A stretch of DNA of 63,131 bases, the filler included. It is 4 parts of 4 records of this genome, joined end to end, with 100 filler letters (N's around TTAATTAATTAA, not from the genome) between each part and the next. Parts side by side here need not be neighbours in the genome. Positions count along the whole stretch, not along the records: positions 21,537 to 35,287 come from SRR31156797_930; 3 more parts are not named here. One strand, given 5' to 3'. Positions 5,784 through 35,387 of the stretch are shown piece after piece. Below the pieces are notes generated by a model. The model worked only from the letters and a program-made list of their open reading frames with translations, searched no databases and was not told the origin of the DNA. The translations under genes were made by a program, and so were the position numbers. The stretch's first letter is position 1. Each line of letters begins with the position of its first letter.

Positions 5784-6632
5784 ATGAGTATTTTTATTAC
5801 GGCGGAAATAGGCATTAACCATAACGGCGATTTGGATATCACCAAACAATTGATCGATGTGGCCAAATTGGCAGGGGCCGACGCGGTGAAATTCCAGAAA
5901 AGATCCATTGAAAAGGTTTATTCGAAAAAAGAATTGGATAAACCGAGAGAAAGCCCATGGGGAACCACCACGAGGGAACAGAAATTAGGTCTGGAATTCG
6001 GTAAAAATGAGTTTGATGAAATCGATCGATATTGTAAGGAAAAGGGGATCGAGTGGTTTGCGTCTGCTTGGGATCTGGAAAGCCAGGAATTCTTGCGCCA
6101 ATATGATCTGAGGCATAATAAGATCGCCTCCGCCTTGACCACCTATCAAGACTTGCTGCAGGAGGTGGCTTCTGAAAAAAAGCACACTTTTATTTCCACC
6201 GGCATGTGCAGTCTGGAAATGATCGACCGTGCCGTGGAAATATTTCGGAACGCGGATTGCCCGTTTGAACTGATGCATTGCGTATCCACCTATCCCACCA
6301 TCGATGAGGACGCCAATTTAAATTGCATTCCGGTATTGCGAAACCGCTACCGATGCGACGTGGGTTACAGCGGACATGAGGTGGGACAAGCGGTCTCCTA
6401 CGCGGCGGCCGCATTGGGCATCACATCGTTGGAGCGACATATCACCCTTAATCGCGCCTTATACGGTTCCGATCAGGCAGCCTCCATTGAACCGGCACTC
6501 TTCATTCAGTTGGTGGGCGGCATCAGAAAAATTGAAAAGGCCATGGGAGACGGGGTGATCAAAATCAGTGACAACGAAGTACCCATTGCCAAAAAGTTAA
6601 GATCTCACATTCCATGGGAATCTCACAAATAA
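5784..6632 (+). CDS. NeuB/SpsE-family PEP-dependent ulosonic acid synthase (short form, no C-terminal SAF domain)
   Basis: AEIGINHNGD, ADAVKFQKR, KIASA, ISTGM, MHCVSTYP, GYSGHE, ERHITL, GSDQAAS; only 282 aa. Confidence 0.9.
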   Translation: MSIFITAEIGINHNGDLDITKQLIDVAKLAGADAVKFQKRSIEKVYSKKELDKPRESPWGTTTREQKLGLEFGKNEFDEIDRYCKEKGIEWFASAWDLESQEFLRQYDLRHNKIASALTTYQDLLQEVASEKKHTFISTGMCSLEMIDRAVEIFRNADCPFELMHCVSTYPTIDEDANLNCIPVLRNRYRCDVGYSGHEVGQAVSYAAAALGITSLERHITLNRALYGSDQAASIEPALFIQLVGGIRKIEKAMGDGVIKISDNEVPIAKKLRSHIPWESHK

Positions 6633-8404
6633 TGGTCAAGCTCTCCGATTACGTCATGAATTTTCTGGTCTCAAAGGGCGTCTCAAAGGTTTTCATGTTG
6701 CCCGGAGGCGGCGCCATGCACCTTGATGATTCATTGGGACGCTACGAAGCGTTGCAATACACCTGTTTTATGCACGAACAGGCATTGGCCATTGCCGCTG
6801 AAGCCTATGGGCAGCATGTGAATTTTCCGGGAGTCGGTTTGGTCACATCCGGTCCCGGCAGCACAAACACCCTAACGGCGGTAGCCGCGGCTTTCATTGA
6901 TTCAACCCCCTGCTTCTTCATTTCCGGACAGGCTAAACGCGCCGACCTGAAGGGCGATACCGGGGTACGGCAAATGGGTTCACAGGAGGTAGATATTGTC
7001 TCCATGGTCAAAAGCGTGACCAAATATGCGGCGACCATCCTGAACCCCGAAGATGTCCGATTTCACCTGGAAAAGGCCTGGACTGAAGCCACCTCCGGCC
7101 GCATGGGGCCCGTCTGGCTGGATATCCCCCTGGACGTGCAGGGCGCTCACATCGACGAAACCGGTCTTCGCGGTTATGCACCCCCCGAATCGTGCCGGTC
7201 AAAGCTTCCACTGGACCGGATAGCCAGAGCTTTCGAGGGCTCCCAACGTCCGCTGATCCTGGTGGGAAACGGGGTGAAGCTTTCGGGTGCCTCTGACCTT
7301 GTCAGAAAATTTGCCGAAAAGTATCAAATCCCCATGGTGCTGACATGGAAAACAGCCGATTTTCTTGATTACGATCATCCCCTCAATTTCGGGTTCCCCG
7401 GCATTATGGGGAGCCGTTATGCAAATTTCATCATTCAGAACAGTGATGTGCTCCTGATTCTCGGCAGTCGGCTCGATCCCAGCCTGACCGCTTTCAACAG
7501 TGCCGATTTCGGTCGCAACGCCTTTAAAATCATGGTCGATATCGATCCGGCGGAGATCAGGAAGATCCAAAATATCGATTTGAGGATCACGGCGGATATC
7601 AGCGAAGCAATGGGGGCTATGGCACAAATACCCATGACGCTGCCGGAGCATTCAAAGTGGCTGGAATATTGCGTCAAACTCAAAAATCGATATCCGGTGT
7701 TTCCAGGCAACGCATCGGCAAACAAAGACGTCGATTTGTATGGGTTCACGGACAGACTTTTTGATCAGTTGCTTAAAACGGACATCATCGTTCCGGAGAG
7801 TTCGGGTGCCGCGGGGGAAGTGACCTATCAGGCCATGCGGGCAAAGTACGGTCAAAGCATCAAGAATGCGGCGGGCCTCGGTTCCATGGGATTCGGGCTC
7901 CCTTACGCCATCGGTTCATGCCTTGCACTGGATCGACGACGAACCATCCTGATCAATGGCGACGGTGCGTTTCAACTCAACATCCAGGAACTGGAAACCG
8001 TCCACCGGCTGCAACTCCCCATCAAGATGTTTATTTTTGATAACGGCGGTTACCAGAGCATCATTAATACCCAGCGCAATATGTTCGGCGGTTTCCTGGT
8101 GGGGGCGGATGCCTCAAGCGGCTTTACCCTGCCGGATATTTGTGCAATCACAAAGGCTTACAAAATCAGAACATCCGTGATTTCAACCAATGACGAACTG
8201 TCGCCGGGCATTGCCGAAGTATTGAAAGGCGATGACCCGGTGCTTTGCCGGGTGAAGGTAAGGCGCGACCAATTGACCATTCCGAAAGTGCAGGCCATGA
8301 AGCTGCCGGACGGAGGGATGGTCTCCAAACCCCTGGAGGATATGTGGCCCTATCTGCCGCCGGAGGAGTTGGCGGAAAACATGAGGATCAGCGCCGATGA
8401 TTAA
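6632..8404 (+). CDS. Thiamine diphosphate-dependent enzyme, YerE/acetolactate-synthase-like (putative sugar acyl-branching enzyme)
   Basis: GGGAMHLDDS, HEQALAIAAEAY, VTSGPGSTN, GPVWLDIPLDVQ, GDGAFQLNIQE...NGGY ThDP motif and C-terminal SKPLEDMWP. It lies among CDP-3,6-dideoxyhexose genes. The likely start is 6632, overlapping the previous TAA. Confidence 0.85.
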   Translation: MVKLSDYVMNFLVSKGVSKVFMLPGGGAMHLDDSLGRYEALQYTCFMHEQALAIAAEAYGQHVNFPGVGLVTSGPGSTNTLTAVAAAFIDSTPCFFISGQAKRADLKGDTGVRQMGSQEVDIVSMVKSVTKYAATILNPEDVRFHLEKAWTEATSGRMGPVWLDIPLDVQGAHIDETGLRGYAPPESCRSKLPLDRIARAFEGSQRPLILVGNGVKLSGASDLVRKFAEKYQIPMVLTWKTADFLDYDHPLNFGFPGIMGSRYANFIIQNSDVLLILGSRLDPSLTAFNSADFGRNAFKIMVDIDPAEIRKIQNIDLRITADISEAMGAMAQIPMTLPEHSKWLEYCVKLKNRYPVFPGNASANKDVDLYGFTDRLFDQLLKTDIIVPESSGAAGEVTYQAMRAKYGQSIKNAAGLGSMGFGLPYAIGSCLALDRRRTILINGDGAFQLNIQELETVHRLQLPIKMFIFDNGGYQSIINTQRNMFGGFLVGADASSGFTLPDICAITKAYKIRTSVISTNDELSPGIAEVLKGDDPVLCRVKVRRDQLTIPKVQAMKLPDGGMVSKPLEDMWPYLPPEELAENMRISADD

Positions 8405-8870
8405 GATGGTTCTACTGGACATCGACGGCGTACTGACGGATGGCAAGGTGACGGTCGATTCGGCCGGAAACGAATCCAAAACCATCGATTTCAAGGATAT
8501 CGACGCCATATTTGAAATGAAGCGGCAAGGTCTGAAAGTGGGATTGATCACCGGTGAAGATACGCCCATCACCCTCTTTTTCAGGAACCGTTTCAAACCG
8601 GATTTCTTTTTCAACGGCTGCAAGGATAAACCGGCTGCTTTGAAGGAAATACTCGCTCAAACCGGGGCTGCTCCGGAAGAGGTCTGCTACGTGGGCGACG
8701 GCAAACACGACATCCCCATCATGAAGCTTGTCAAGTTTGCGGCATGTCCTGCGAACGCCATTCCCCAAGTCAGGAAACTCTCGAACATTCTTCTTGCACA
8801 CAATGGCGGGGACGGCTGCGTGTGGGAACTCATGGAATGGATTTTGGCGCGGAAAAATCATGGATCTTGA
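8397..8870 (+). CDS. KdsC-like HAD phosphatase (ulosonate-phosphate phosphatase family)
   Basis: LDIDGVLTDG, ITGE, KDK, YVGDGKHD, PANA, GGDGCVWE. Confidence 0.87.
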   Translation: MIKMVLLDIDGVLTDGKVTVDSAGNESKTIDFKDIDAIFEMKRQGLKVGLITGEDTPITLFFRNRFKPDFFFNGCKDKPAALKEILAQTGAAPEEVCYVGDGKHDIPIMKLVKFAACPANAIPQVRKLSNILLAHNGGDGCVWELMEWILARKNHGS

Positions 8871-9384
8871 TGACGCAATCGCCTTTCTGGAAGCGCAATG
8901 CGAAAATCCCCGTTCGGGACTCCCGGAGAAGGTCTTTCTGCTCCTTACGCGCCTGACGCCCATGGTCAACGTTGATCTTTTGATCAAAGATAACGCTGAG
9001 CGCACGCTTCTGACCTGGCGCGATGATATTTACCATGGCGCCGGCTGGCACATCCCGGGGGGCGTCATCCGCTTCAAGGAGACCGCCGCCCAGCGCATCG
9101 CCGCCGTCGCAAGGCTGGAACTGAATTGTGATCTCACCGCGGAGGACCGCCCCACGGCGCTCAATGAGTGCATTTCGGAAACGCAACGCAACCGGGGGCA
9201 TGCGGTTTCCCTTCTCTACCGCTGCACATTGACTTCGCCGCCGTCGAAAGAATTGAAATATCCCGGCGGAAAACCTCACCCGGGCATGTTCCATTACTTT
9301 GACCGCGCGCCTGAAAATCTACTGGAAGTTCATCATATGTACCGAAAATACATCGGCCCACAATCGAGGTTAAAAAATGGCTGA
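8860..9384 (+). CDS. Nudix hydrolase, GDP-mannose mannosyl hydrolase-like
   Basis: TPMVNVDLLI and WHIPGGVIRFKETAAQRIAAVARLEL (variant Nudix box of NDP-sugar hydrolases). The likely start is ATG 8860. Confidence 0.75.
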   Translation: MDLDDAIAFLEAQCENPRSGLPEKVFLLLTRLTPMVNVDLLIKDNAERTLLTWRDDIYHGAGWHIPGGVIRFKETAAQRIAAVARLELNCDLTAEDRPTALNECISETQRNRGHAVSLLYRCTLTSPPSKELKYPGGKPHPGMFHYFDRAPENLLEVHHMYRKYIGPQSRLKNG

Positions 9385-10444
9385 AGCAGAAGGAAAACAG
9401 AAATTTGAAAACGCCAAACGGAACAAGTTGCAACAGGAAAAACCGCTGGTGTACGAAAAGATCATCAAACTGGCGGACATGGAAAAAAGGGGAGAATGCA
9501 CCTCCCGCATCGACATCGGGTACAACTACGCCTGCAACCTGAAGTGCAAACATTGCATGGCGAACACCTTTCAGAAAAAAGATCGATCCCTTACCCCCGC
9601 GGACATGCGCAGCATCGCCGAACAGGCTGACGCCCTCGGTTGGTGCCAGTTTAACATCTCCGGCGGCGAGCCCTTGATTTTGAAAAACTTTGATGAGGTT
9701 TTGGAGGCCTTGATGCCTGAAAAATTTCATATCGGCATCAGCACCAACGGCTATTACCTGACCGCCGAAAAGGCCAAGCATCTGAAATCGATCGGTTTGG
9801 ACAAGGTCATGATAAGCCTTGACAGCTATGACGAAGCGCTCCACAACGCAAACCGCGCAAATGACGGTGCCTATGAAAAAGCTGTAAACGCCATCTGGAA
9901 CGCGCGGAACGCCGGCCTCGACACCATCATACAGCATGTAATCACCCATGAAAACGCCAGAACGGAGAACACTGTTAAACTGGCTAAATTCTCACAAGAA
10001 AACGGGTTTTCCCTGGATCTGGTCATTGCCAAGGCCATCGGCCAGTGGGAGGGACGGCATGACGTCCTCATTGACGCCGGGGACGCTAAATTTCTGCGTG
10101 AACTCAACAAGGAATACCCGGTGGCCCGTAGGGACGTATTTCCTTCCTACGGCATGCGCGGTGGGTGCGGCGTTCTGAAAAAATGCTTCCACATTTCCCA
10201 GTACGGCGACGTGTTCCCGTGCGTCTTCATGCATGTGACCATCGGCAATATCTTTGAGGACTCCTTGAAAACCATTGTGGACCGCGGAATGGGGATCAGA
10301 CACTTCAAGGATTTCTCCCCCATCTGTCTGACGGGAGAAAACCGCGACTTCATAAAAAAATACATGTCCAGGTTTTACGGCAAACCGCTGCCGGTGGATT
10401 ACCGCGAAGTATTCATTGACGAAGACGACTTTGTCAGGGAATGA
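9377..10444 (+). CDS. Radical SAM protein with SPASM/twitch-like C-terminus
   Basis: CNLKCKHC, SGGEP, ISTNG, ISLDS; C-terminal GCG...HISQYGDVFPC...IGNI. Confidence 0.9.
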   Translation: MAEAEGKQKFENAKRNKLQQEKPLVYEKIIKLADMEKRGECTSRIDIGYNYACNLKCKHCMANTFQKKDRSLTPADMRSIAEQADALGWCQFNISGGEPLILKNFDEVLEALMPEKFHIGISTNGYYLTAEKAKHLKSIGLDKVMISLDSYDEALHNANRANDGAYEKAVNAIWNARNAGLDTIIQHVITHENARTENTVKLAKFSQENGFSLDLVIAKAIGQWEGRHDVLIDAGDAKFLRELNKEYPVARRDVFPSYGMRGGCGVLKKCFHISQYGDVFPCVFMHVTIGNIFEDSLKTIVDRGMGIRHFKDFSPICLTGENRDFIKKYMSRFYGKPLPVDYREVFIDEDDFVRE

Positions 10445-11421
10445 AAATGGCTGCGATTAAACAATATTCCCATCTGAAAGAGAACCGGATCAGTCTGCGT
10501 GATGCCATACCCCTCGCCAAACCCTTTACGATTCTTTTCGAGCCGGCAAGCGTCTGCAATTTCAAATGTCTCTGCTGTTTTCATAACGAACCGGACATCA
10601 GCTCCCATCTCCCAAAGGGGCTCATGGAATTCGAGGATTTCAAAAAGATTGCGGACGATCTGGCGGAATGGGAAGGAGACAAACTCAAAGTCATCCGCAT
10701 CATCGGCTTCGGCGAACCGCTGATCAATCCGGACACTCCGCGGATGGTGAAATATCTAAAAAAGCTGGACGTGGCCGAAAGGATCGAAATCACCACCAAC
10801 GCTTCCCTGATGACGCCGAAACGCTCACTGCAACTGATCGATTCGGGGCTTGATTACATTCGGTGTTCCATATATGCCGTTGATCAAGAAAAGCATGAGG
10901 CTTTGACCCAAAACAGAATCAGCATTGAAAAGATTAAGAAAAACATCGCGACGTTAAAAGAATTGCGCGATACAGCCGGCGCTTCGAAACCATTCATTTA
11001 CATAAAGATGCTTGAAAACCGGAATAAACCGGAAAACAATTTCTTTCTGAAGGAATATGCTGCCGTTGCGGACGAGACGGCCATTGAAAAACCCCATCAA
11101 TGGTTGTCAAATAAAGGTTCCGCACCCGGAAAAATGCGGCGCGTCTGCCCCCAGCCCTTCAAAATGCTCAGCATTCATTTTAACGGCAACGTTATCCTTT
11201 GCGATCCCGACTGGAAGGGGAACACCTGCGTCGGGAACGCGCTTTCGGAAAAAATTTCTTCCATTTGGGGGGGGTGCAAAATGCATGAATTCTGGAGGAT
11301 GCAGCTTGAAAACAGACGGCACGAAAATAAAAGCTGTCGGAACTGCTCCTTCCTCATGGATGAATACGCCATCGACGACCTTGACGGCGTTTCACCCCAT
11401 GTACTGGTTGCCGGGCGATAG
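10441..11421 (+). CDS. Radical SAM/SPASM-type protein (type A, paralog of 13786-14796)
   Basis: CNFKCLCC, GFGEPL, ITTNASL; C-terminal CPQPF...GNVILC...CRNC. Confidence 0.9.
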   Translation: MKMAAIKQYSHLKENRISLRDAIPLAKPFTILFEPASVCNFKCLCCFHNEPDISSHLPKGLMEFEDFKKIADDLAEWEGDKLKVIRIIGFGEPLINPDTPRMVKYLKKLDVAERIEITTNASLMTPKRSLQLIDSGLDYIRCSIYAVDQEKHEALTQNRISIEKIKKNIATLKELRDTAGASKPFIYIKMLENRNKPENNFFLKEYAAVADETAIEKPHQWLSNKGSAPGKMRRVCPQPFKMLSIHFNGNVILCDPDWKGNTCVGNALSEKISSIWGGCKMHEFWRMQLENRRHENKSCRNCSFLMDEYAIDDLDGVSPHVLVAGR

Positions 11422-11423
11422 AA

Positions 11424-12599
11424 ATGAATTTCCTTGAAACAGTCACCACCAGTTCCAAGCCGGTTGTTGTTTTCGGAGCCTCCGTCATGGGAAAGATTCT
11501 TCTTGATGCCCTTGACTTATTGAACGTCCGGCCCGTCTGTTTCTGCGATAACGACCTTCGAAAGCAACAAAAGCCGTTTCACGGGTATAAAGTAATCTCT
11601 TTTAAAAAACTCTGCGCGGATCATTCGGAAGCGCTTATGGTCATTGCCGCGGGGCGTTATTTCAACGAAATCAGAGATCAGCTTTCAAATGCCGGGTTTA
11701 TGAAGGTTTTTAGTGATTCGGATGTCATCGGCAGTATTGATTTCAAAAACACGCCCCATTCAAGGCTAAAAAAAATCATTTGGCACCTGGCCAAGCTGGG
11801 AAAGCTTGGCGAAATAATGGACCTGCCCGTCGACGGCCTTCATGTGCCAAGACTGAACGTGGTTGTTACATCGCGCTGCACTTTGAAGTGCAGACATTGC
11901 TCCAGTTTAATGCCCCACTATGGGACGTCATCGGATTTCGACACATCCATAATCCTGGCTTCACTGGATCGCCTATTCGCATGTACGGACCTGATCTATC
12001 ATGTGGAACTCCTGGGCGGCGAACCTTTCTTAAACAGAAACCTTTTTGTAATCGTAAAGCATCTATTGAATTCGAAACGCATCCTTCATATAGACGTTAT
12101 TACAAACGGAACGGTTCTGCCGCCGGACAGGGTTCTGGATTCCTTGAAACACGACGCCGTAAGCGTGGTTATCGACGATTACGAAAAATTATCGTATAAA
12201 ATAGAAGTGTTATCGGAAAATCTGGAACGTAGAGGCATCGATTTTCACGTCAACAGACACTGGGCATGGGCGGATCTCGGCGGCTTTGAACCCAGGCATC
12301 GCACTGAAAAACAGTTGACGCGACGATTTAACCAATGCAATTTCAACACCTGCACTGAACTGATCGAGGGGAAACTGCACCGCTGTCCACGCTCATCGCA
12401 CGGCACGCGGACGGGGGTCATCCCCGAATACCCCGAAGACTTCCTCAACATCCAGGATGCGTCCGTAAACATTGATGGTCTGAAGGAACAGCTCAAAGCC
12501 TTTCTTCATGATAAGAAATTCATTCGCGCTTGCGATCATTGCGACGGGAACAACAGCGCGTCGCTTATGCTGACGCCCGCGGAGCAACAAAAAAGGTGA
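11424..12599 (+). CDS. Radical SAM protein with N-terminal Rossmann-like module (type B, paralog of 15833-17113)
   Basis: N-terminal VVVFGAS...FCDND..KQ...HGYKV; CTLKCRHC; LLGGEPFL; ITNGT; C-terminal GKLHRC...ACDHC. Confidence 0.88.
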   Translation: MNFLETVTTSSKPVVVFGASVMGKILLDALDLLNVRPVCFCDNDLRKQQKPFHGYKVISFKKLCADHSEALMVIAAGRYFNEIRDQLSNAGFMKVFSDSDVIGSIDFKNTPHSRLKKIIWHLAKLGKLGEIMDLPVDGLHVPRLNVVVTSRCTLKCRHCSSLMPHYGTSSDFDTSIILASLDRLFACTDLIYHVELLGGEPFLNRNLFVIVKHLLNSKRILHIDVITNGTVLPPDRVLDSLKHDAVSVVIDDYEKLSYKIEVLSENLERRGIDFHVNRHWAWADLGGFEPRHRTEKQLTRRFNQCNFNTCTELIEGKLHRCPRSSHGTRTGVIPEYPEDFLNIQDASVNIDGLKEQLKAFLHDKKFIRACDHCDGNNSASLMLTPAEQQKR

Positions 12600-12605
12600 G
12601 AGACC

Positions 12606-13757
12606 ATGACTGACAAAAAAAAATGCCGGGCGTGCGGAAATAAGTTCGGCGAAGAAAGCCTTCTTCGCCTGCCGGATATGCCAGGCGCCGTCCAAAACCT
12701 ACCCGACCATAAAGATGAGGCCATTGCTTCCGGTGTTGTTCTGGATGTAAGAGAATGCTCCCATTGCGGGCTGGTACAGCTTAACAACGATCCCGTCCCC
12801 TATTATAAAGACGTTATCAGGGCGGCAAGTTCTTCGCCCTCCATGAGGGCGCGGCAACATGATGAGTTCAAAGCATTCATTGAACGATTTTCCCTCGAAG
12901 GGAAAAACATTCTGGAAATCGGGTCCGGACGCGGAGAATACCTTTCCATTCTAAAGGAACTCCCCGTCAAGGCCTACGGCATGGAACATAACCGGGAATT
13001 CAGCGAAATCGCAAATGAGAAGGGGTTGAAGACTTTCCGGGCATATCCAACGGATGTGCGGGGACCGGTGGGCGGAATATTGTTCGACGCTTTCATTTCA
13101 ATCAATTTCCTCGAGCATGCGCCTGATCCTGGCGCCTTTCTGCGCGCCTCGGCCAATCTCTTAACGGAAAACGGGGTCGGAATGATCGGTGTTCCCGACT
13201 TTGAATTCGAGTTGAAGGATAATTTCCTTTTCAGTTTCATGAGTGACCACCTCTCTTATTTTTCAACCCATTCCCTGCGCAACACCTTGACATTTAACGG
13301 TTTTGAAGTCATTGACATATTCAGGAACAAAAAGCTGAATGTGGTGACGGCATATTTCAGAAAGCCCTGCCAATGCGACCTTTCAGTCCCCAAGGATAGA
13401 TTTTTTAATTTCAACCAACAGATTAACGACTATATGGATTCGATTCTGAAAAACGGTGGACGGATCGCCCTTTGGGGCGCCAGTCACCTGGCTTTCAGCA
13501 TCATTTCGGCATCAAAAACAGCCAATAAGATTTCATACATCGTTGATTCCGCGCCTTTTAAGCAGGGAAAATTTTCACCGGCATCCGGGTTGGCGATATT
13601 TCCGCCGCAATATTTGTCCGAAGATCCCGTTGATGCCGTTATTGTCATGTGTCCTGAATATTCAGACGAGATCGTGTCAAGCATTAGGGAAAATTTCTCT
13701 CAAGCGGTTAAAAATATTGCAACGTTTATAAATGGTAAGATTCAGATAGTATTATGA
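12606..13757 (+). CDS. NDP-sugar C-methyltransferase-like class I SAM methyltransferase
   Basis: N-terminal CRAC...CSHCGLVQL zinc module; LEIGSGRG SAM motif; FLEHAPDP; DHLSYF; C-terminal WGASH...IVDSAPFKQGK (C-methyltransferase C-terminal domain). Confidence 0.82.
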   Translation: MTDKKKCRACGNKFGEESLLRLPDMPGAVQNLPDHKDEAIASGVVLDVRECSHCGLVQLNNDPVPYYKDVIRAASSSPSMRARQHDEFKAFIERFSLEGKNILEIGSGRGEYLSILKELPVKAYGMEHNREFSEIANEKGLKTFRAYPTDVRGPVGGILFDAFISINFLEHAPDPGAFLRASANLLTENGVGMIGVPDFEFELKDNFLFSFMSDHLSYFSTHSLRNTLTFNGFEVIDIFRNKKLNVVTAYFRKPCQCDLSVPKDRFFNFNQQINDYMDSILKNGGRIALWGASHLAFSIISASKTANKISYIVDSAPFKQGKFSPASGLAIFPPQYLSEDPVDAVIVMCPEYSDEIVSSIRENFSQAVKNIATFINGKIQIVL

Positions 13758-13785
13758 TAATTGATACGCAATAGGAGTTTTTATA

Positions 13786-14796
13786 ATGGCCGAAATAAAA
13801 GATAAAAAAGCCACTGAAAGAACGAGGCTTGAAACTGTAATACCCCTTGAAACGCCTTTCGAATTACAGTTGGCCGTCGCAAGCAACTGCAACTTCAAAT
13901 GTATTTTTTGTCCTTGTTCCGACATAAAATCATTAAGAAAGGCAAATGTTAAAAAGGGAATTATGAATTTTGACCTTTATAAAAAGATAATTGACGATCT
14001 TGATGAATTCCCTGAAAAAATAAAAGTTTTGCGTTTGATGAGAGAAGGCGAACCGTTGTTAAATAAAAGGTTCCCCGACATGGTGCGCTACGCTAAAAAA
14101 AAGCAGCCTTCCGTGAAGGTTGACACAACAACCAATGCAAGTCTCCTGACGCCGGAATTTTCGGATGACATCATAGACTCCGGGCTGGATAAAATAGGGA
14201 TTTCACTCCAAGGCATGAACGCTGAAGCTTATAAAAGGGTTTCCGGCGTCGACATTGATTTTGACAGATTCATGGAAAATGTGATTTATTTTTGTGAAAA
14301 TCGAAAGAACTGTAAAGTCTTTATCAAGGTGCCGGACATCGGCGTTAATGAAGCCGAGGAAAAGGCTTTTTTTCAATTGTTTGATCAGTATGCCGACGAA
14401 ATGTTCGTGGAACGGATTTTTCCCGCATGGCCCAATTTTGAGGTTTCACACGTCAAAAAAAATGACGGCATCGGATACTATGGCCGTCCGGTTCTTGACG
14501 CACCGGTTAAAGTCTGCACGTTGCCGTTCTATGATTTGACGGTTTCCCATGAAGGGATCGTTACCGCATGTTCCATTGATTGGGAACAAAAAACCAATTT
14601 GGGCGATGTCAGCAACCATAGTTTATACAAAATCTGGAACGGAAAACGTTTTAACGATTTCAGACGGATGCAATTAAAGGGAAACAGACGTCAAGATTTG
14701 TTGTGTGGAAAATGCGACTCGCTGGAGTATTGCGAGCCTGATATCATTGATGATTACAGTGATATGTTGCTTGAAAAATACGAAACTTTGCCATAA
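13786..14796 (+). CDS. Radical SAM/SPASM-type protein (type A)
   Basis: CNFKCIFC, REGEPLL, TTTNASLL; C-terminal CTLPF...GIVTAC...CGKC. Confidence 0.9.
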   Translation: MAEIKDKKATERTRLETVIPLETPFELQLAVASNCNFKCIFCPCSDIKSLRKANVKKGIMNFDLYKKIIDDLDEFPEKIKVLRLMREGEPLLNKRFPDMVRYAKKKQPSVKVDTTTNASLLTPEFSDDIIDSGLDKIGISLQGMNAEAYKRVSGVDIDFDRFMENVIYFCENRKNCKVFIKVPDIGVNEAEEKAFFQLFDQYADEMFVERIFPAWPNFEVSHVKKNDGIGYYGRPVLDAPVKVCTLPFYDLTVSHEGIVTACSIDWEQKTNLGDVSNHSLYKIWNGKRFNDFRRMQLKGNRRQDLLCGKCDSLEYCEPDIIDDYSDMLLEKYETLP

Positions 14797-14863
14797 TTCC
14801 TGTGAAGACTTTGCGCCATAAGGTCAAATTTTTTCAGTTGCACACAATAGGAGAAGATTCATA

Positions 14864-15781
14864 ATGCGGAACAAGCGGATATTCATCACCGGTGGAACCG
14901 GATTCTTCGGAAAAAGCATCATACGCCACTGCCGTGAAATAAAGGAAAATAATATCGTCATTCTTTCCCGCAACCCTGAAAAGCGAAAAGAAGAGTTTAA
15001 AGATCTGTTGAAGGATGGGTTGAGCGCCAATATAGATTTTTTGGGTGGAGACGTCAGGAATTTCGACTTTCCGGAAGGCGATTTCGACTATATTATCCAC
15101 GGCGCCGCGACTTCAGGCAAAATAATACCGGACAATGAAATGCTTTCAGTGGTGATTGACGGCACAAAGCGTGTTCTTGAATTCGCGTCGAACAACGCAC
15201 ATCTTTCCAATCTGCTTTATGTCAGTTCCGGCGCCGTTTACGGGAACAAACATAATGTTCCCTTAGGTGAGGATTTATCCTGCGAACCGGTCAACGTCTA
15301 TGGCCGGTCCAAACTGGAAGCTGAAAAACAATGCATTGATTCCGGAATCCCTTGCAGCATCGCCCGCTGCTTCGCTTTCGTCGGCGAATACCTGCCCCTG
15401 GATGAGCACTTTGCCATCGGTAATTTTATTCGTGACTGCCTAGACAATCAGCCCATCATCATCAAAGGGGACGGTTCGCCCATTCGGACCTATCTTTATT
15501 CAGGCGACCTTGCCCATTGGCTATGGATTATATTGCTTAACGGCAAACCCGGACGGATCTATAACGTCGGTTCTGATCAGGAAGTTTCAATCGGCGGACT
15601 GGCCGATATTGTTCGAAAGGCCGCGGGAACAGCCAACGAAATAAAGATCTTATCGCCACCCTCAGACGAAAATCCACACCGCTATTCACCGGATATATCA
15701 CGAATTCGCCGTGAACTCGGGCTCAAGGAAGAAACCTCCCTTGATCAGGCAATCCGTTTAACGCTCGCACATCATGTTTAA
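14864..15781 (+). CDS. NAD-dependent epimerase/dehydratase/reductase (extended SDR)
   Basis: ITGGTGFFG, IHGAA, SSGAVYG, YGRSK (YxxxK), ARCFAFVG. Confidence 0.9.
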   Translation: MRNKRIFITGGTGFFGKSIIRHCREIKENNIVILSRNPEKRKEEFKDLLKDGLSANIDFLGGDVRNFDFPEGDFDYIIHGAATSGKIIPDNEMLSVVIDGTKRVLEFASNNAHLSNLLYVSSGAVYGNKHNVPLGEDLSCEPVNVYGRSKLEAEKQCIDSGIPCSIARCFAFVGEYLPLDEHFAIGNFIRDCLDNQPIIIKGDGSPIRTYLYSGDLAHWLWIILLNGKPGRIYNVGSDQEVSIGGLADIVRKAAGTANEIKILSPPSDENPHRYSPDISRIRRELGLKEETSLDQAIRLTLAHHV

Positions 15782-15832
15782 GCGCTTTTATTTACCCGGG
15801 CGTTTTGCATCAAAACAGAAAAGGTACCGATC

Positions 15833-17113
15833 ATGTCTGCCGATAACACTTTTGCCGGATACAATTTAGAACGCATTCTTTCTTACGATGTTGACGGTCT
15901 TACAAGCGAAATGAGATCGCGATCTTCGTCGGTCGTCCTGTTTGGTGCGGGCCTGATCGCCAGATATGCTTTAACCGCTCTAAAATCGCACGACGTCCGG
16001 GTGGATTACGTTTGCGACAGCGACGAACGAAAACAGGGAAAGATTTTCTGTGGTTATGAAATCACGACGCTATCCAGCTTGGCGGCCACGACGCCTGACG
16101 CATTTGTTCTTATTTGCAGCAGTTCGCTCGGCCCGATGCTCTCAACTCTTGAATCCTTGGGCTTCAGGAATGTCTTTAGCTGTATCTCCATTTTTGAAAG
16201 AACGAATTTTTCAAAGTTATATTTTAGCAAGGATGATCTAAAACATATCGGTACAGCCGGGATTGACCGCGATATCCAAATATATTGCCTCGAGTTGAGA
16301 CAGTTTGCCAATAAAAACAGACCTGACGGGCTTAAATTGCCAATCATCGACATCGTCGTCACGGAAGCCTGCTCCATGAAGTGCAAAGATTGCTCAAACC
16401 TGATGCAATACTACGCCCACCCGAAACACTGCCGATTAAATGTTCTTTTTGAATCGATTGATAAAATAATGAAATCCGTGGATTGGGTTTCCGAATTTCG
16501 TGTCATTGGGGGGGAGCCATTTTTAAATAAAAATATTGGAAAAGTAATCGAAAAACTTCTTGAATACGATAACGCGGACAAAATTGTAATATATACAAAC
16601 GCTACAATCGTGCCAAAAGGAAATAATTTGCAATGTTTGAAAAACAGCAGGGTTCAAATTGACATAACCAATTACGGCCTCCTTTCCAGAAAATATGATG
16701 AATTATCCAAAATATTTGAAATCGAAGGCATATCTTACGCCACCAAAATACCTAAATGGACAGATTCAGGTAGGATATTGCCCTGCCAACAAAAATCAAG
16801 AGAACAAATTGAGGATTTGTTCTTTAAATGTTGTACGAATGATGTTTTCACACTTCTACATGGAAAACTCTATCACTGTGCATTCTCCGCTCATGCAATG
16901 AATCTAAAGGCGATCCCCCTTAATGGAGAAGATGTAATTGACGTTAACGAGGAATCAGAGGGACATGGATTGCGTCATAAAATAGACCAGTTTTATAAGA
17001 AAAAAAATTGCTTAACGGCTTGCTCCTATTGCAGTGGACGCGATTACAGTACGCCATTTATCGAACCTGCCATACAAACAAAAAAACCGCTGCCCTTACC
17101 CACAAATTCCTAA
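15833..17113 (+). CDS. Radical SAM protein with N-terminal Rossmann-like module (type B)
   Basis: VVLFGAG...VCDSD..KQG..FCGYEI; CSMKCKDC; IGGEPFL; YTNAT; GKLYHC...ACSYC. Confidence 0.88.
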   Translation: MSADNTFAGYNLERILSYDVDGLTSEMRSRSSSVVLFGAGLIARYALTALKSHDVRVDYVCDSDERKQGKIFCGYEITTLSSLAATTPDAFVLICSSSLGPMLSTLESLGFRNVFSCISIFERTNFSKLYFSKDDLKHIGTAGIDRDIQIYCLELRQFANKNRPDGLKLPIIDIVVTEACSMKCKDCSNLMQYYAHPKHCRLNVLFESIDKIMKSVDWVSEFRVIGGEPFLNKNIGKVIEKLLEYDNADKIVIYTNATIVPKGNNLQCLKNSRVQIDITNYGLLSRKYDELSKIFEIEGISYATKIPKWTDSGRILPCQQKSREQIEDLFFKCCTNDVFTLLHGKLYHCAFSAHAMNLKAIPLNGEDVIDVNEESEGHGLRHKIDQFYKKKNCLTACSYCSGRDYSTPFIEPAIQTKKPLPLPTNS

Positions 17114-17130
17114 TCATTTTAAATTTATAG

Positions 17131-18450
17131 ATGCCGTTATTCAGCATTATCATTCCGGTCTTTAATGACGAGAACAATTTGACGTCAGCTGTTGAGAGCG
17201 TGTTGCGTCAAGGTTGTGACGATTGTGAATTGATCATTATTAACGATGCATCGACCGATAACAGTGGTTTGGCGGCCGAAAAACATGCTTGCCAATATCC
17301 ATGGGTCAAAGTCATTCATAATGAATCCAACCTGGGCGTTGCTGAAAGCAGAAACAGGGCTTTATCCGTTTCCACAGGCAACTATATCATCTTTTTAGAC
17401 AGCGACGATATGTTAATGGAAGATTGTCTTAGCGGCCTTGCCAAGATAATTGAAGAGCAACCGGATACGGAACTCATTGTTGGGAGATGGGTGAGAGAAC
17501 ATGGCGAGGCGTCAAACGCACGTATTTTTGAAAATCCGACCGTATTGCAATCCAACGACCCGACAATTCTGATAAAGCATTTAAACGACATAAATTATTT
17601 AAACTATGTATGTTGGCACTATGTCATTAAGCGAAAAGTCCTAATCGAAAAACAACTGCGGTTCCTCAATGTGAGGATCGCCGAAGATCAAGAATTTGTC
17701 GCAAGGCTTCTTTGTTCCGTTGCGTCCGTTTCCTATTTTGACCAACCGATGTACTTGTATAGGGGAACGGGGAGAATTTCCAGATCCATGGATTTAAATA
17801 CGAGTATCGGTTTCATGGAAATCATTATTTCGCTAGGGAAGTTCATCAAAAAAAACAGACAATTAAGATCCGAACAGAAAAAGTTTGTCTTTTTGAGAAT
17901 GGGAAGTGTGAACGGAATGCTTTCTGGACGTTTATCGCTCCTCAATGAGGAAGAAATTGAAAACCTGGAAGCATATCGGAAAGACGCTGTGCAGAGATGC
18001 TACGAACTCCATGATATTTTCAGGGACCTGAACCTACGCCACCTGGCTGACGGGAACGGTCGGGAATGTGGCATTCCGGACCTGAGACAGCAAGAGGAGG
18101 ATCGGGTGTTCGGCCTTCTGCATGGGGCAAATCCTACTCACGAACTGTTTATATTCTGCGCCTCAATCGACGCGGTTTCATTGGGCTATGGTCTGCGCGA
18201 AAAAGGTTATCAGGTTTTGGGTTTAATTGATAACAAACCGACATTGAACGGGACGGTCCAAGATGGATTTCCCGTTTTCGGCCCCGATAAATTCTCTTCG
18301 AGAGACAGGGAACAAAACCAAAATTGTATTGTTATTGTCTGCCATCAAAGCAAGGAAACATTTTGCGATATTGCAGAGCAATTGATGCGATACGGTTTAA
18401 ACAAGGAAAACATAAAGCATAGCAAACCGGTATGGTCGATGGTGGGTTGA
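17131..18450 (+). CDS. GT2 glycosyltransferase with C-terminal Rossmann-like module
   Basis: FSIIIPVFN, IIINDASTD, SRN, FLDSDD, AEDQEF; C-terminal LFIFCAS...LIDN...DGFPV. Confidence 0.88.
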   Translation: MPLFSIIIPVFNDENNLTSAVESVLRQGCDDCELIIINDASTDNSGLAAEKHACQYPWVKVIHNESNLGVAESRNRALSVSTGNYIIFLDSDDMLMEDCLSGLAKIIEEQPDTELIVGRWVREHGEASNARIFENPTVLQSNDPTILIKHLNDINYLNYVCWHYVIKRKVLIEKQLRFLNVRIAEDQEFVARLLCSVASVSYFDQPMYLYRGTGRISRSMDLNTSIGFMEIIISLGKFIKKNRQLRSEQKKFVFLRMGSVNGMLSGRLSLLNEEEIENLEAYRKDAVQRCYELHDIFRDLNLRHLADGNGRECGIPDLRQQEEDRVFGLLHGANPTHELFIFCASIDAVSLGYGLREKGYQVLGLIDNKPTLNGTVQDGFPVFGPDKFSSRDREQNQNCIVIVCHQSKETFCDIAEQLMRYGLNKENIKHSKPVWSMVG

Positions 18451-29781: not shown

Positions 29782-29795
29782 GCAAAGGAATTATC

Positions 29796-30959: not shown

Positions 30960-32306
30960 ATGACCGAAATAGGAATTATTGCAGTTGGCGGCTATAACGA
31001 GATGGGCCGGAATATGACTGCTATCAGGATCAATGATGATATTATCATCGTTGATATGGGTCTTCGCCTGGACAGGGTCCAGATACATGAAGACGTAGAG
31101 ACCGACAAAATGCATTCACTTGAGCTTATTGAGATGGGAGCCATTCCAGATGACACCATCATGAAAGAAGTAAATGGGAATGTACGTGCGATAGTTTGTA
31201 CCCATGGTCACCTTGACCACATTGGTGCAATTCCAAAACTTGCACATAGATATGCAGCTCCGATAATAGGGACACCTTATACAACAGCCCTTATTAAACA
31301 CCAGATAGATTCTGAGAGGAAATTCGGAGTAAAGAACAACATCTTGTCAATGAAAGCAGGCGAGAGCAAGAAGATTACAGATGATATAACCATTGAATTT
31401 GTCAATACACAACACAGTATAATCGACACTATATTCCTTGTAATCCACACCCCTGGTGGCGCCCTTGTATATGCATGTGATTTCAAGCTTGACAGGACTC
31501 CTACACTTGGAGAGGCACCGGACTTTGAAAGACTCAAGGAGCTTGGAGAAGAAGGAGTTGTTGCCCTCATAACAGAAAGTACTAACGCAGGACGCAATGG
31601 AAAAGCACCTTCTGAAATGATAGCACATTCCATGCTCAGGGACGTCCTCCTGGAGACTGAGGAATCAGATGTTGGTATGATTGTCACAACCTTTGCTTCA
31701 CACGTATCCCGTGTAAATTCAATCGTTAAATTTGCACAGGAAATGGGCAGAATTCCTGTACTCATGGGTAACTCCATGGAGAGATACATTGGAACTGCAC
31801 AGAAAATGGGTTTCATTGAGCTTCCTAAAAATGTTGAGATATACGGAAAGCGCAGGGAAATTGACAAGGCATTTACAAAGATCATGGAAAAAGGCAAGAA
31901 CAAATACCTTCCGGTTATCACAGGTCACCAGGGAGAACCCGGAGCTGTACTTGGAAGAATTGCAGCCGGCGAGACACCTTTTAAGATCGACAAAGGTGAC
32001 AGGATTATTTTCTCTGCCAACATTATTCCAAACCCTATGACACAGGCAAACCGCTATGCACTTGAGACTAAACTGAAGATGCGCGGAGCCAGAATCTATG
32101 ACAATGTCCACGTATCAGGACATGCTTACCGTGAAGACCACTGGGAACTTCTCAAGATGCTTAAACCGGAGCATATTATCCCTGCACACGGAACCATACA
32201 GATGCACAGCGAGTACATCCAGATGGCAGAAGATGCAGGATACATACTTGGAGACACCCTCCACCTCCTGAGAAACGGAGAAGAACTCTACATTGAAGAA
32301 GAATAA
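30960..32306 (+). CDS. rnj: RNase J family beta-CASP ribonuclease
   Basis: GGYNEMGRNM, THGHLDHIG, HSIID, DFK, GHQGEP, HVSGH, PAHG. Confidence 0.94.
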   Translation: MTEIGIIAVGGYNEMGRNMTAIRINDDIIIVDMGLRLDRVQIHEDVETDKMHSLELIEMGAIPDDTIMKEVNGNVRAIVCTHGHLDHIGAIPKLAHRYAAPIIGTPYTTALIKHQIDSERKFGVKNNILSMKAGESKKITDDITIEFVNTQHSIIDTIFLVIHTPGGALVYACDFKLDRTPTLGEAPDFERLKELGEEGVVALITESTNAGRNGKAPSEMIAHSMLRDVLLETEESDVGMIVTTFASHVSRVNSIVKFAQEMGRIPVLMGNSMERYIGTAQKMGFIELPKNVEIYGKRREIDKAFTKIMEKGKNKYLPVITGHQGEPGAVLGRIAAGETPFKIDKGDRIIFSANIIPNPMTQANRYALETKLKMRGARIYDNVHVSGHAYREDHWELLKMLKPEHIIPAHGTIQMHSEYIQMAEDAGYILGDTLHLLRNGEELYIEEE

Positions 32307-32328
32307 TATATTTGGATAAGGGATCTTA

Positions 32329-33297
32329 ATGGATTTGATCGAAGAGATTAAAAAACGTTCAATGCATGTCGACGAAGGTATTGAGGATTACCTTCCTGTC
32401 GTCAAGCCATATGAACTTTACAAGGCAGCCAGATACCTTCCGGATGCAGGAGGAAAAAGACTTCGTCCTGCAACAGTCATCCTTGCGGCAGAAGCTGTCG
32501 GCTCTGATCTTGAAACCGTTCTTCCGGCTGCAGTAGCTGTGGAACTTGTCCATAATTTCACACTGGTACACGATGACATCATGGACAGAGATGACATCCG
32601 CCGCGGAATGCCTTCTGTGCATATAAAGTGGGGAGAGGCAGGAGCAATTCTTGCCGGAGATACACTTTATTCAAAGGCTTTTGAGATACTTACCCGCGCA
32701 CCGGCAGGAGCACCTGAACGTAACCTGAAATGTATCGATATTCTTTCCAAGGCCTGCAGGGATATCTGTGAAGGCCAGTGGATGGATGTTGAGTTTGAGG
32801 ACCGGGACGATGTCACAAAGGAAGAATACCTTGAGATGATCGAGAAGAAGACTGGTGTACTCTATGCAGCTTCAATGCAGATTGGTGCAATTCTTGGTGG
32901 AGCATCCGAAGAAGTATCAGATGCATTCTACGAATGTGGAAGACTCATCGGTATCGCTTTCCAGATCTATGATGATGTCATCGATATGACCACTCCTGAG
33001 GAAGTCCTCGGTAAGGTCAGGGGCAGTGACCTCATGGAAGGAAAGAAGACCCTTATTGCCATACATGCCCTGAACAAAGGCGTTGAAATCAAGATATTTG
33101 GCAAAGGGGAAGCTACAACAGAAGAGATCAACGAGGCAGTCCGCCAACTTGAGGAAGCAGGCTCCATAGATTACGTAAGAGACCTCGCACTGTCCTATAT
33201 TGCAAAGGGCAAGGAGCTTCTTGACGTTGTTGACGATTCCGAAGCAAAAACAATTCTCAAGGCAATTGCAGATTATATGATCACAAGATCATACTGA
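32329..33297 (+). CDS. idsA: Geranylgeranyl diphosphate synthase
   Basis: GGKRLRP, HNFTLVHDDIMD...RRG, GQWMD, KKTG, FQIYDD, EGKKT. Confidence 0.95.
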   Translation: MDLIEEIKKRSMHVDEGIEDYLPVVKPYELYKAARYLPDAGGKRLRPATVILAAEAVGSDLETVLPAAVAVELVHNFTLVHDDIMDRDDIRRGMPSVHIKWGEAGAILAGDTLYSKAFEILTRAPAGAPERNLKCIDILSKACRDICEGQWMDVEFEDRDDVTKEEYLEMIEKKTGVLYAASMQIGAILGGASEEVSDAFYECGRLIGIAFQIYDDVIDMTTPEEVLGKVRGSDLMEGKKTLIAIHALNKGVEIKIFGKGEATTEEINEAVRQLEEAGSIDYVRDLALSYIAKGKELLDVVDDSEAKTILKAIADYMITRSY

Positions 33298-33309
33298 TCT
33301 GTACATTAT

Positions 33310-33335
33310 CTTTTTTCTTTTTATTTTACTCTTTT
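33310..33335 (+). terminator. Archaeal oligo-T terminator after idsA
   Basis: CTTTTTTCTTTTTATTTTACTCTTTT just after the stop codon. Confidence 0.55.
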
Positions 33336-33361
33336 ACAGAGCCGTGGCTGTGCCTGTAAAA

Positions 33362-33471
33362 TGAATAAAGAGAGGATTTTCTAAGGGTACACTGCATTAC
33401 ATGAAGAAAAATGCAAAGGGGATAAACCGTTTACTATGGCTAAGCATGTGAGGGAGAGATTGGAGATATAT
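33362..33471 (+). pseudogene. 3' fragment of a casposase (casposon Cas1) C-terminal HTH region, with one frameshift
   Basis: Manual translation: *IKRGFSKGTLHYMKKNAK, a 1-nt frameshift near 33420, then GDKPFTMAKHVRERLEIY. This resembles my recollection of the Methanosarcina casposase C-terminus (W-KK-x-GFSKGTLHYMK-x-NAK-x-DKPFT-x3-HV). Not verified by search. Confidence 0.75.
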
Positions 33472-33473
33472 GA

Positions 33474-33698
33474 AAGGAAGCCAACAACATTGATGAAGAG
33501 AAATTAGAGCTTCAGAGAGCACAGACATTCATTGATGAGAAATCTATCAAACAGAAGATACTGGCTTTGACTCCAAAGGAAGCAAAGGCATACGGGGTTA
33601 TGGAAAGGAGTACCCTCAAAAGAATGAAGGACAGAATTTTGAGTGGTGAAAAATTTAATTTCTGGGTAACGGAGGTGAGGAAATTAACTTTAATTTAA
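33474..33698 (+). pseudogene. 3' fragment of a casposon-type family B DNA polymerase
   Basis: Open frame with no start codon, preceded by TGA: KEANNIDEEKLELQRAQTFIDEKSIKQKILALTPKEAKAYGVMERSTLKRMKDRILSGEKFNFWVTEVRKLTLI*. It resembles the recalled (YIG)KEANNIDE...KILALTP..A...G...RSTL tail of casposon PolBs. Not verified by search. Confidence 0.7.
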
Positions 33699-34499
33699 TA
33701 TAAATTCGTAATGATCCTCTTCCTTTTTCTCTTTTAAACAACATTTTTTGTATTTTAACCCTGAACCACACGGGCATAACTCATTTCGACCAACTTTAGA
33801 GTATTTAGAAACAGTTTTTTTGCATATTTCATAATCCCACAATTCCCATGGGGACGAAACAATTTTAGGTAAATACTCTAAAAGCGGAAAGCTGTACTCA
33901 CGGCCTACAATATCTATAACAGAATATTTCTGAACAGGATTGTCTGTGAGTGATATTTCTAAAAGGGTCATATCAGTGACAACTGCTGAACATGGTTCTC
34001 CATCATATATTTCCCCATTTTCATGTTCGCATTGATTTCGAGGTGTAATTAATTCATTGCAAATAGAACACCTTCGTTTTCCTGTAAACCCCGGACTTAT
34101 AAAAGTTTTGTATGGGAATAATGATTGGAATTTTGTTACATATTTCCTAATATGTTCTATACCAAAGTCGTCATGTTTGTCATTAAAGTGTTTGTCTAAA
34201 AATGAGATTTCAATTTCACATCTTTCCAAGGAACACCAGGCATCATAAAAGTTTTTATTCTTGATCTGATTATATGATGCTACAAATTTGTCTTGAATCC
34301 TCCCAATTGTTTCAAAGCACCATGCTACTTTAGCAACTAATTGATTAGAAGAAGCAACAGCTCTTTTTTTAATTTTGGAGAGTTCTTCCCAATACTCATT
34401 AGGTAAAAGGTCATTTTGTCTACTTTTAAATTGCAATGCAATATTTCTTGGATTTGAAAAAATAATACTACGATATATCAAATTTTCAACATCATTCAT
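33690..34499 (-). CDS. SEC-C zinc-binding protein with a central prohead-protease-like Cys-rich core
   Basis: C-terminal KVGRNELCPCGSGLKYKKCC (SEC-C); central ISPGF...CSIC-x9-CEH-x2-G-x2-YDG-x2-C...LLEISLTDNP. Confidence 0.8.
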   Translation of the reverse strand: MNDVENLIYRSIIFSNPRNIALQFKSRQNDLLPNEYWEELSKIKKRAVASSNQLVAKVAWCFETIGRIQDKFVASYNQIKNKNFYDAWCSLERCEIEISFLDKHFNDKHDDFGIEHIRKYVTKFQSLFPYKTFISPGFTGKRRCSICNELITPRNQCEHENGEIYDGEPCSAVVTDMTLLEISLTDNPVQKYSVIDIVGREYSFPLLEYLPKIVSSPWELWDYEICKKTVSKYSKVGRNELCPCGSGLKYKKCCLKEKKEEDHYEFILN

Positions 34500-34523
34500 T
34501 TATGCAACCACACTGTACTTAAA

Positions 34524-35027
34524 TCACTCTACAATTTTAGACAATGTATATTCGTACTGGTCTGCTGGACCTTCATATTCAATTAATCTGTTTTCTTCAT
34601 CGCCAGTGGAAATGATTATTCTACTTTTCACAATAGTATTATCAACTTTTAACTTTTCATATATATAATTTGCAATCAACCCTGTAACTATTGGGAGAAA
34701 TATTCCCGATATAATTATTGTGGGAAGAGTTACTATAGCGGAGTGTTGTGCCAACTCTAAATAGTCTTCATCCTTTGTAGCGATATCAACTGTTACTTCT
34801 TTTTGAGCTTCTTTTTGTAAATATTGAAAGAAATCTACTGTACCAACAGGAAATATGTTTTTATTTTTTAGTTCATCTCGATTTTCGTTAAGAGTGAGAG
34901 GAGCAATGAGAATATTAGCTAACGAAATGGCACTTATAAGTGATTGATCATCTGTACATTTTTCAACGACAGAATTTAAGGTGATATTTGTTGGCTTATC
35001 TATAAATTTAATGTCATTTGTGTTCAT
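34524..35027 (-). CDS. Hypothetical single-pass membrane protein
   Basis: 167-aa ORF with hydrophobic segment IVTLPTIIISGIFLPIVTGLIANYIY, 24 nt upstream of the SEC-C gene and co-oriented with it. Confidence 0.75.
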   Translation of the reverse strand: MNTNDIKFIDKPTNITLNSVVEKCTDDQSLISAISLANILIAPLTLNENRDELKNKNIFPVGTVDFFQYLQKEAQKEVTVDIATKDEDYLELAQHSAIVTLPTIIISGIFLPIVTGLIANYIYEKLKVDNTIVKSRIIISTGDEENRLIEYEGPADQYEYTLSKIVE

Positions 35028-35138
35028 AATATACCCGTGAAAATTAATATGAAAAGTTTATCTTCACCTTATTACTTAATTTTATGGATCTATTCACAAT
35101 TTCATTTCACTAGAAAATAATAATATTAAATTGATAAC

Positions 35139-35168
35139 CGTTGCGTTTTTTGGTTATTACTATTACCC
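35139..35168. repeat. Candidate casposon terminal inverted repeat (single surviving end)
   Basis: CGTTGCGTTTTTTGGTTATTACTATTACCC; the reverse complement begins GGG...AAAAAACGCAACG, resembling my recollection of Methanosarcina casposon ends. The partner copy is not in the window. Confidence 0.5.
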
Positions 35169-35287
35169 GCAGGAATCCTGCCAATTCCAACTCCGAAACC
35201 AGCAATTCTCAATAACTGCACAATTAAATAGTCTTCAGGATAGTGGTGACGGAACGTGCCGCCTGCGGCGGATGGTCGCATTGTTCT

Positions 35288-35387
35288 NNNNNNNNNNNNN
35301 NNNNNNNNNNNNNNNNNNNNNNNNNNNNNNNTTAATTAATTAANNNNNNNNNNNNNNNNNNNNNNNNNNNNNNNNNNNNNNNNNNNN
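35288..35387. other. Artificial contig spacer
   Basis: N-run + TTAATTAATTAA + N-run. Confidence 0.99.

Follow-up and report, generated by a model that had tools for sequence, protein, structure and literature searches.

A probable composite casposon remnant with two same-strand gene tails in a Methanolobus-like genome

Introduction

The segment at positions 33360-35168 of the DNA analysed here, which comes from the Methanolobus-like genome of a methanogen, is probably a non-autonomous composite remnant of two family 2 casposons. What remains of them is two dead HTH-coding tails, one of a casposase gene (cas1) and one of a family B polymerase gene (polB), together with two cargo genes and a single terminal inverted repeat (TIR). 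The block cannot transpose, and the tails do nothing. All positions refer to the window, i.e., the whole stretch of DNA that was analysed, 63,131 nt in length including filler.

Casposons, which are self-copying transposons, are thought to be ancestral to the CRISPR adaptation machinery. To our knowledge, their decay is little documented beyond solo-TIRs. The available parts of PMC4779613 and PMC6977970 describe the casposons of M. mazei as having a 14-bp TSD with an invariant 5'-CGCA. In the same portion of PMC4779613, tandem casposons of Methanosarcina share a TSD and occur in both orientations, and solo-TIR remnants are reported.

Results

Composition of the locus

The window is composed of four contigs, which are joined by linkers of the form N44-TTAATTAATTAA-N44 at 21437-21536, 35288-35387 and 57314-57413. 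Genes that face each other across a linker are not adjacent; for example, the minus-strand ORF at 35336-35968, which is truncated and resembles a membrane pyrophosphatase, starts a different contig. The relic is located within the contig 21537-35287, approximately 1.6 kb short of the contig end. The features of the locus are as follows.

32329..33297, plus strand: host gene of 322 aa, named idsA in the preliminary description; an ORF that borders the relic on the left
33298..33359, plus strand: host spacer with a T-rich tract and a short hairpin; also conserved in relatives, irrespective of whether they carry the relic (G092, G055, G116, G034)
33360..33477, plus strand: cas1 3' tail; DNA and protein alignments to intact casposases, same junction in G092
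33474..33477, plus strand: junction AAGG, compatible with the end of cas1 (GAAAG-) as well as with polB codon 812 (AAGGAAGCC); no filler bases
33474..33698, plus strand: polB 3' tail, codons 812-885 of a casposon family B polymerase of about 886 aa, plus stop; protein search, tblastn and DNA alignment
33690..34499, minus strand: cargo gene 1, 269 aa; SEC-C metal-binding motif at the C-terminus (Pfam SEC-C, E 4.8e-10)
34524..35027, minus strand: cargo gene 2, 167 aa, no family; ORF list and family scans
35139..35168, plus strand: casposon terminal inverted repeat (right end), 30 nt, CGTTGCGTTTTTTGGTTATTACTATTACCC; copies bound intact elements
35168..35181, plus strand: target-like 14-mer CGCAGGAATCCTGC with CGCA motif; adjoins the TIR, left partner copy deleted
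35169..35287, plus strand: host spacer right of the element, up to the contig end; homologous to the G092 spacer before the convergent gene

The preliminary description had placed the relic just after the gene called idsA and had noted start-less frames missing from the ORF track. Both observations hold, and the frames read as described. Frame 1, KRGFSKGTLHYMKKNAK at 33368-33418, has no start codon and reads ...VK*IKRGFSKGTLHYMKKNAKG. It is continued in the next frame by frame 2, GDKPFTMAKHVRERLEIYERKP at 33418-33483, which is also start-less. Frame 3, KEANNIDEE...VRKLTLI, comprises 74 codons at 33474-33695, again without a start, and its stop lies at 33696-33698. All three are missing from the list of ORFs of at least 30 aa, apart from a 43-aa piece at 33567-33698 that starts with TTG. 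The one frameshift that had been noted corresponds to a 1-nt deletion near 33418/33419.

Identification of the two gene tails

Judged by its alignments, the segment 33360-33477 corresponds to the HTH tail at the C-terminus of a family-2 casposase. In a tblastn search of the whole window with P0035, a casposase of 401 aa, 33374-33471 matched with 16/16 and 14/23 identical residues (E 4e-10); there are no further cas1 matches in the window, the next hits of P0035 having E > 4. At the DNA level, 33362-33476 shows 80-85% identity to the cas1 3' ends of intact elements. P0035 itself is intact and encoded by the L024 element; it ends with ...SYSEWKELGFSKGTLHYMKKNAKGDKPFTLNAHVRERLEMWSGC, matches Pfam Cas_Cas1 (E 4.7e-67) and TIGR00287 (E 1.4e-64), and aligns over residues 1-399 with PDB 6opm, which is labelled CRISPR-associated Cas1 (E 2e-181). 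The same GFSKGTLHYMK..DKPFT motif is present at the C-terminus of PDB 6opm, which we take to be the M. mazei casposase (attribution after Hickman 2020). The C-terminal HTH of a Methanosarcina casposase, which the preliminary description had proposed for this place, was hence correctly named. A 109-aa ORF from a Methanolobus MAG locus (L002) also matches Pfam Cas_Cas1 (E 1.4e-8) and ends with ...KFSNVILYYMKKNAMSDKPFSLNEHVRERLEM.

Only the last approximately 38 codons of cas1 survive, interrupted by one stop and one frameshift, and the catalytic domain is absent. The stop, a TGA in frame at 33362-33364, takes the place of a Trp codon of intact casposases; at the other end, the last 2-3 codons and the native stop are missing. 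We also considered GDKPFT...ERLE as frameshifted upstream polB. This was rejected, since DNA homology to polB does not extend upstream of 33474 and it is the 3' ends of cas1 to which the stretch aligns.

The 74-aa frame retrieved 32 proteins at E <= 1 among 54 candidates from a database of 5.8 billion sequences. The best two are PolBs named Methanolobus, of 886 and 885 aa, with 82% and 81% identity (E 2.8e-29 and 3.0e-29), both at 100% query coverage (74/74 residues). The matched region is the last 74 residues of PolB, ...YIGKEANNIDEE...RKLVSVF, or residues 812-885 according to tblastn, and 33474-33685 is 82-87% identical in DNA to the polB 3' ends of intact elements. Pfam DNA_pol_B is present in 13 of the 32 matched proteins and was not found in the 74-aa piece itself. 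The relic derives from a family B polymerase gene and does not encode such a polymerase. Neither Pfam nor PHROG assigned a family to the 74-aa and 22-aa pieces, the lone hit being to a PHROG of unknown function (E 0.017). The matches of both tails are far beyond chance. Casposon Cas1 and a family B polymerase, which had been expected from a homology search, were both recovered, and the PolB tail proposed earlier proved right.

The polB tail is an open frame with neither indels nor stops in its 74 codons. Compared with intact polB tails, it yields omega values of 0.06-0.17; intact tails compared with each other give 0.05-0.34. An unbroken frame and an omega within the intact range fit a later arrival than that of the cas1 tail. 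A TGA is located immediately upstream, where intact polB has a Gly codon, and polB DNA homology stops at 33474. The homology to cas1 extends to about 33477 (GAAAGG), such that the two overlap by 3-4 nt. No hits across the cas1/polB junction were obtained in 36 genus genomes, and its polB side is known from one assembly.

Among other polB-tail relics, that of G085 (L027 9097-9305, G085:C13) starts within about 3 nt of the window breakpoint, with unrelated upstream sequence and different cargo, and those of G047, G101 and G144 begin 10-21 codons earlier. A breakpoint hotspot shared by the window and G085 was rejected: the coincidence is not beyond chance among approximately 50 relics, and the upstream sequence differs.

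A likeness between the two tails was already known. As stated in the available sections of PMC6977970 and PMC4046053, family-2 casposases carry an extra C-terminal HTH domain of 60-70 residues that is essential for integration, and the latter source describes a similar HTH at the C-terminus of family-2 PolBs. In our case, pairwise BLAST, with its tiny search space, gave 12/41 identities between the casposase tail and the PolB tail (E 0.004).

Gene orientation in casposons of the genus

In all 25 of 25 full-length neighbouring cas1/polB pairs, which were paired by hand among the matches listed, the two genes diverge, their 3' ends pointing outward toward the TIRs and their starts being about 2.1-2.2 kb apart. 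The intact elements L023-L025 have the same layout. The two tails of a single element are thus found on opposite strands, about 6 kb apart, while both tails of the window are on the plus strand. Given divergent genes in 25/25 pairs, two same-strand tails cannot stem from one internal deletion. G136 illustrates the product of such a deletion: its cas1 tail, on the minus strand, is directly adjacent to polB 258-884 on the plus strand. An arrangement closer to the window is found in G004, where one strand carries a cas1 tail (residues 259-401), cargo and a TIR, then a 15-nt spacer, and then a second element composed of an inverted TIR of another subfamily, an ORF, a polB tail (residues 739-886), cargo and a TIR.

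Ends of different TIR subfamilies with 14-15-nt spacers between them are found at L051 4270-7900 (G004:C1) and L002 3178-3235, one such array reading ...ACCC + 14 nt + GGGATATA... These arrays show that the same target is used repeatedly by different casposon lineages.

The cas1 survey (E <= 1e-5) gave matches in 34 of 36 genus genomes and the polB survey (E <= 1e-30) in 56 of 151 family genomes. A total of 269 cas1 matches were obtained in the 36 genus genomes, with 19-29 per genome in some of them. Counted by hand among the 150 cas1 matches listed, 27 are full length, about 80 are C-terminal fragments (query end at least 390) and 5 are N-terminal only. Solitary polB fragments, also counted by hand, keep the C-terminus in about 50 cases and are N-terminal only in 2, and polB breakpoints are denser toward the 3' end. 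The usual casposon leftovers in the genus are TIR-proximal gene tails beside cargo, and the relic of the window is one of many.

A separate group of five polB hits starts at residue 771 or 772 (query 771-884) in G011, G104, G026, G109 and G018, with 53-60% identity and open frames of 94-124 aa. These may not be random truncations but instead represent a separate gene that is related to the C-terminal domain of PolB.

The host site in related genomes

The gene at 32329..33297 has DNA matches in 139 of 151 family genomes, the best at 87%. In relatives, its homologue converges on a minus-strand gene ending with ...AAAQAVIEKQDNS, which, read by eye, is a putative pyruvate phosphate dikinase. In G055, G116 and G034, a short spacer free of casposon DNA separates the idsA homologue from the convergent gene. 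The window hence carries casposon-derived sequence at a site that is empty in these three genomes. The comparison of the regions downstream of idsA also shows an older state, in which the cas1 tail stands alone.

That state is found in G092, the only relative among the 36 genus genomes with the cas1 relic at this site; the order of events depends on this one comparison. G092 shares with the window the host/cas1 junction and the cas1 tail (86% identity, query positions 3-256), as well as derived changes, among them the TGA and the 1-nt deletion. The spacer 33298..33359 aligns to that of G092 with 58 matches and 3 mismatches. The shared junction and derived changes indicate that the cas1 relic predates the split from G092. 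Unlike the window, G092 retains the native end of cas1 (...MWRGC-stop) together with the first part of the adjoining casposon gene; a spacer homologous to the right flank of the window and the convergent gene come next. The G092 locus contains neither polB tail nor TIR. With a native cas1 end and no polB tail in G092, the cas1/polB junction of the window is derived. No intermediate with a complete second element at the site was found in the genomes compared.

One observation counts against a composite origin. In the comparison of 33298-33467 with L035 2467-2634, the cas1 relic differs from G092 at 15/102 aligned sites and the 64-nt spacer at 3/61, while four-fold sites differ at 61/141 (43%) in idsA and at 73/181 (40%) in the upstream neighbouring gene. 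Tested against the four-fold sites, relic and spacer give Fisher p values of 1.5e-6 and 7e-9, respectively. Neutral DNA of this age would be expected to have diverged further. Constraint could account for the difference, as could a recombination tract or gene conversion from live casposase genes. Folding of 33298-33480 as RNA yielded a z-score of only -2.1.

Cargo genes and the right end

Cargo gene 1 converges on the polB tail with a 9-nt overlap. PADLOC and NCBIfam searches of the cargo proteins gave only motif-level SEC-C hits. Among the loci compared, the cargo pair occurs elsewhere only in G144, in the same order, with a polB tail (residues 792-885) on one side and a TIR on the other. The G144 copies show 73.5% DNA identity and protein identities of 69% (cargo 1, full-length) and 53% (cargo 2). 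The respective omega values of 0.13 and 0.28 indicate purifying selection, and from these sequence comparisons both cargo genes look selected and still functional. They alone are likely the active part of the relic.

The 30-nt TIR has identical or near-identical copies that bound intact elements as inverted pairs. In L024 the pair spans 7843..15964 with a perfect 14-bp duplication, in L023 it spans 7170..17598, and in L025, beside tRNA-Leu(TAA), it spans 6616..15620 with a 14-bp duplication. Within the window there is no second copy at up to 8 mismatches. The claim that the element had lost its left end is in good agreement with this single TIR and the absence of one on the left. It had further been stated that only two terminal segments and the cargo survive; the cargo does, and the right TIR with its CGCA motif had been overlooked, as had the end of the contig. 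HNH and HTH(-HEAT) core genes were not found by tblastn of the window, where six L024 ORFs other than cas1 and polB gave only hits of E > 0.4 elsewhere. A tRNA scan detected no tRNA genes in the window.

As to cargo elsewhere, two minus-strand genes of the L025 element in G034 encode a collagen-repeat protein (14642-15382) and a SecY-family protein of 569 aa (6792-8501), the latter with Pfam matches to SecY (E 2.7e-43) and to the plug domain. The cargo at L024 7997-8638 is a DUF4304 protein.

The contig stops 119 nt past the TIR, and the context further to the right is inferred from G092. The right spacer ends in a multi-copy GC hairpin, as short unitigs at 35251-35287 have a depth of 125-200 compared with 36-44 for longer contigs. 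Between idsA and the convergent gene, G092 has a spacer segment of about 190 nt that contains GC hairpins (GTGCCGCC..GGCGGATGG). This segment corresponds to L035 2746-2932 and L034 1221-1410, and in G071 it has the opposite orientation relative to idsA. An Rfam search of 33200-35287 and of the loci of G092 and G071 yielded no hits below E 0.5 and a single snoRNA hit at E 0.8.

Discussion

Origin of the relic

We suggest that the relic arose in three steps. As the comparison with relatives shows, an old casposon in the spacer after idsA decayed to a casposase 3' tail of about 120-150 nt before the lineage of the window and G092 separated. A second casposon would then have integrated into a CGCA-type site of the spacer, approximately 150-200 nt beyond this tail, presumably in inverted orientation with its cas1 side toward the old relic. 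Finally, the old cas1 tail end was joined to codon 812 of the new polB. The junction is read directly from the assembled DNA, and we infer that it was formed by a deletion via AAGG microhomology (3-4 nt). This deletion would have removed the left TIR of the new element, its cas1-side cargo, cas1, the core genes and polB codons 1-811. The head-to-head pair in G004 provides a precedent for the layout of such a composite precursor. The homology of the right flank to the G092 spacer counts for a composite origin, and a stop and a frameshift within about 38 cas1 codons, compared with none in 74 polB codons, count for two elements.

The preliminary description had favoured one casposon after idsA that is missing its left end as well as the stretch between the cas1 and polB ends. 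Alignment to intact casposons did place the breakpoint, at polB codon 812. The orientation survey and G092 weigh against a single deletion. Both tails do belong to the same casposon family, with only 3-4 nt separating or overlapping them, and one TIR and the cargo are retained, as would be expected of one element. With the two genes divergent in every pair inspected, such an origin demands an atypical layout, a single deletion leaving tails on opposite strands as in G136. Moreover, the same cas1 relic exists in G092 with its native 3' end and without any polB tail. We consider a single element unlikely. An artefact of assembly, in which repeated casposon sequence joined the cas1 tail to the polB tail, is very improbable. 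The contig does end in a multi-copy repeat, and casposons are reported to break assemblies (PMC4779613, in the part available). However, the 3-4 nt shared at the join are too short for assembler bridging, a possible source run contains 58 of 58 sampled words of 33250-33800, and the idsA/cas1 side is independently confirmed in G092.

A one-ended, abortive insertion, through which the block of polB tail, cargo and TIR entered as a 5'-truncated copy, seems improbable as well. For this, only one end would have integrated at the CGCA site, self-synthesis running inward from the TIR would have stayed incomplete, and the copy would have been joined by microhomology to DNA on the other side, with about 200 nt of target lost. 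The single TIR and the microhomology at the truncated end are in agreement with such a course, and single-end integration by casposase is known in vitro according to the available text of PMC6977970. The relics of the genus, which are mostly TIR-proximal 3' tails (about 80 versus 5 for cas1 among the matches listed, about 50 versus 2 for polB), also point in this direction. The same bias would, however, result from ordinary internal deletions that spare both ends, and examples with two TIRs exist (G004 element B). We found no case of a truncated side abutting DNA contiguous with the TIR-side flank, and no such mechanism in those parts of the casposon literature that were covered. A composite of two casposons remains the origin that we propose.

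Significance

The locus is a clean, datable case of casposon decay, with an old casposase tail found in two lineages and a later insertion that would have used a CGCA site. A microhomology deletion presumably welded two unrelated gene tails and spared cargo that appears to be under purifying selection. For annotation, an 'intergenic' stretch is explained, and the fused tails are not a gene. The excess of 3' tails makes the mode of casposon loss, or abortive insertion, directly countable. If abortive insertion were the true course, it would be a DNA-transposon analogue of LINE 5' truncation, and the excess would record frequent abortive transposition rather than slow deletion.

Comparison with known systems

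In Ac/Ds-type non-autonomous copies, the transposition genes are lost by deletions with junction microhomology and the termini are kept. In contrast to these internal deletions, which keep both TIRs, the window has one TIR, and its tails lie on the same strand where a casposon deletion gives opposite strands.

The family 2 casposons of M. mazei (MetMaz-C1, MetMaz1FA1A3-C2) are, in the available portions of PMC4046053, PMC4779613 and PMC6977970, characterised by HTH tails on casposase and PolB, a TIR of about 30 nt, a 14-bp CGCA TSD, and tRNA-Leu or intergenic targets. All of these features are found in L023-L025. Unlike them, the relic of the window consists of two cargo genes, one TIR and the last approximately 38 and 74 codons of cas1 and polB, respectively, lacks an HNH or HTH-HEAT gene and a second TIR, and has a Methanolobus-like host.

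The fused cas1-tail/polB-tail junction is not described in the portions of the casposon literature covered, supplements excepted, and in the available text of PMC10359463 'Methanolobus' occurs in the reference list only. The relic resembles the IR1 solo-TIRs of M. mazei and the fragmented casposons of Methanococcoides burtonii, which are degraded, immobile and located at a former integration site (PMC4779613, partial text). The same partial text reports that some known remnants are common to related strains and that tandem insertions occur at one target in either orientation. Unlike those remnants, the window keeps gene tails, apparently live cargo and a TIR, and probably fuses pieces of two insertions. 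Casposons, their HTH tails, the TIR and TSD rules, tandem arrays and remnants have all been published before, and the locus adds a well-documented case to a kind of remnant that is already known.
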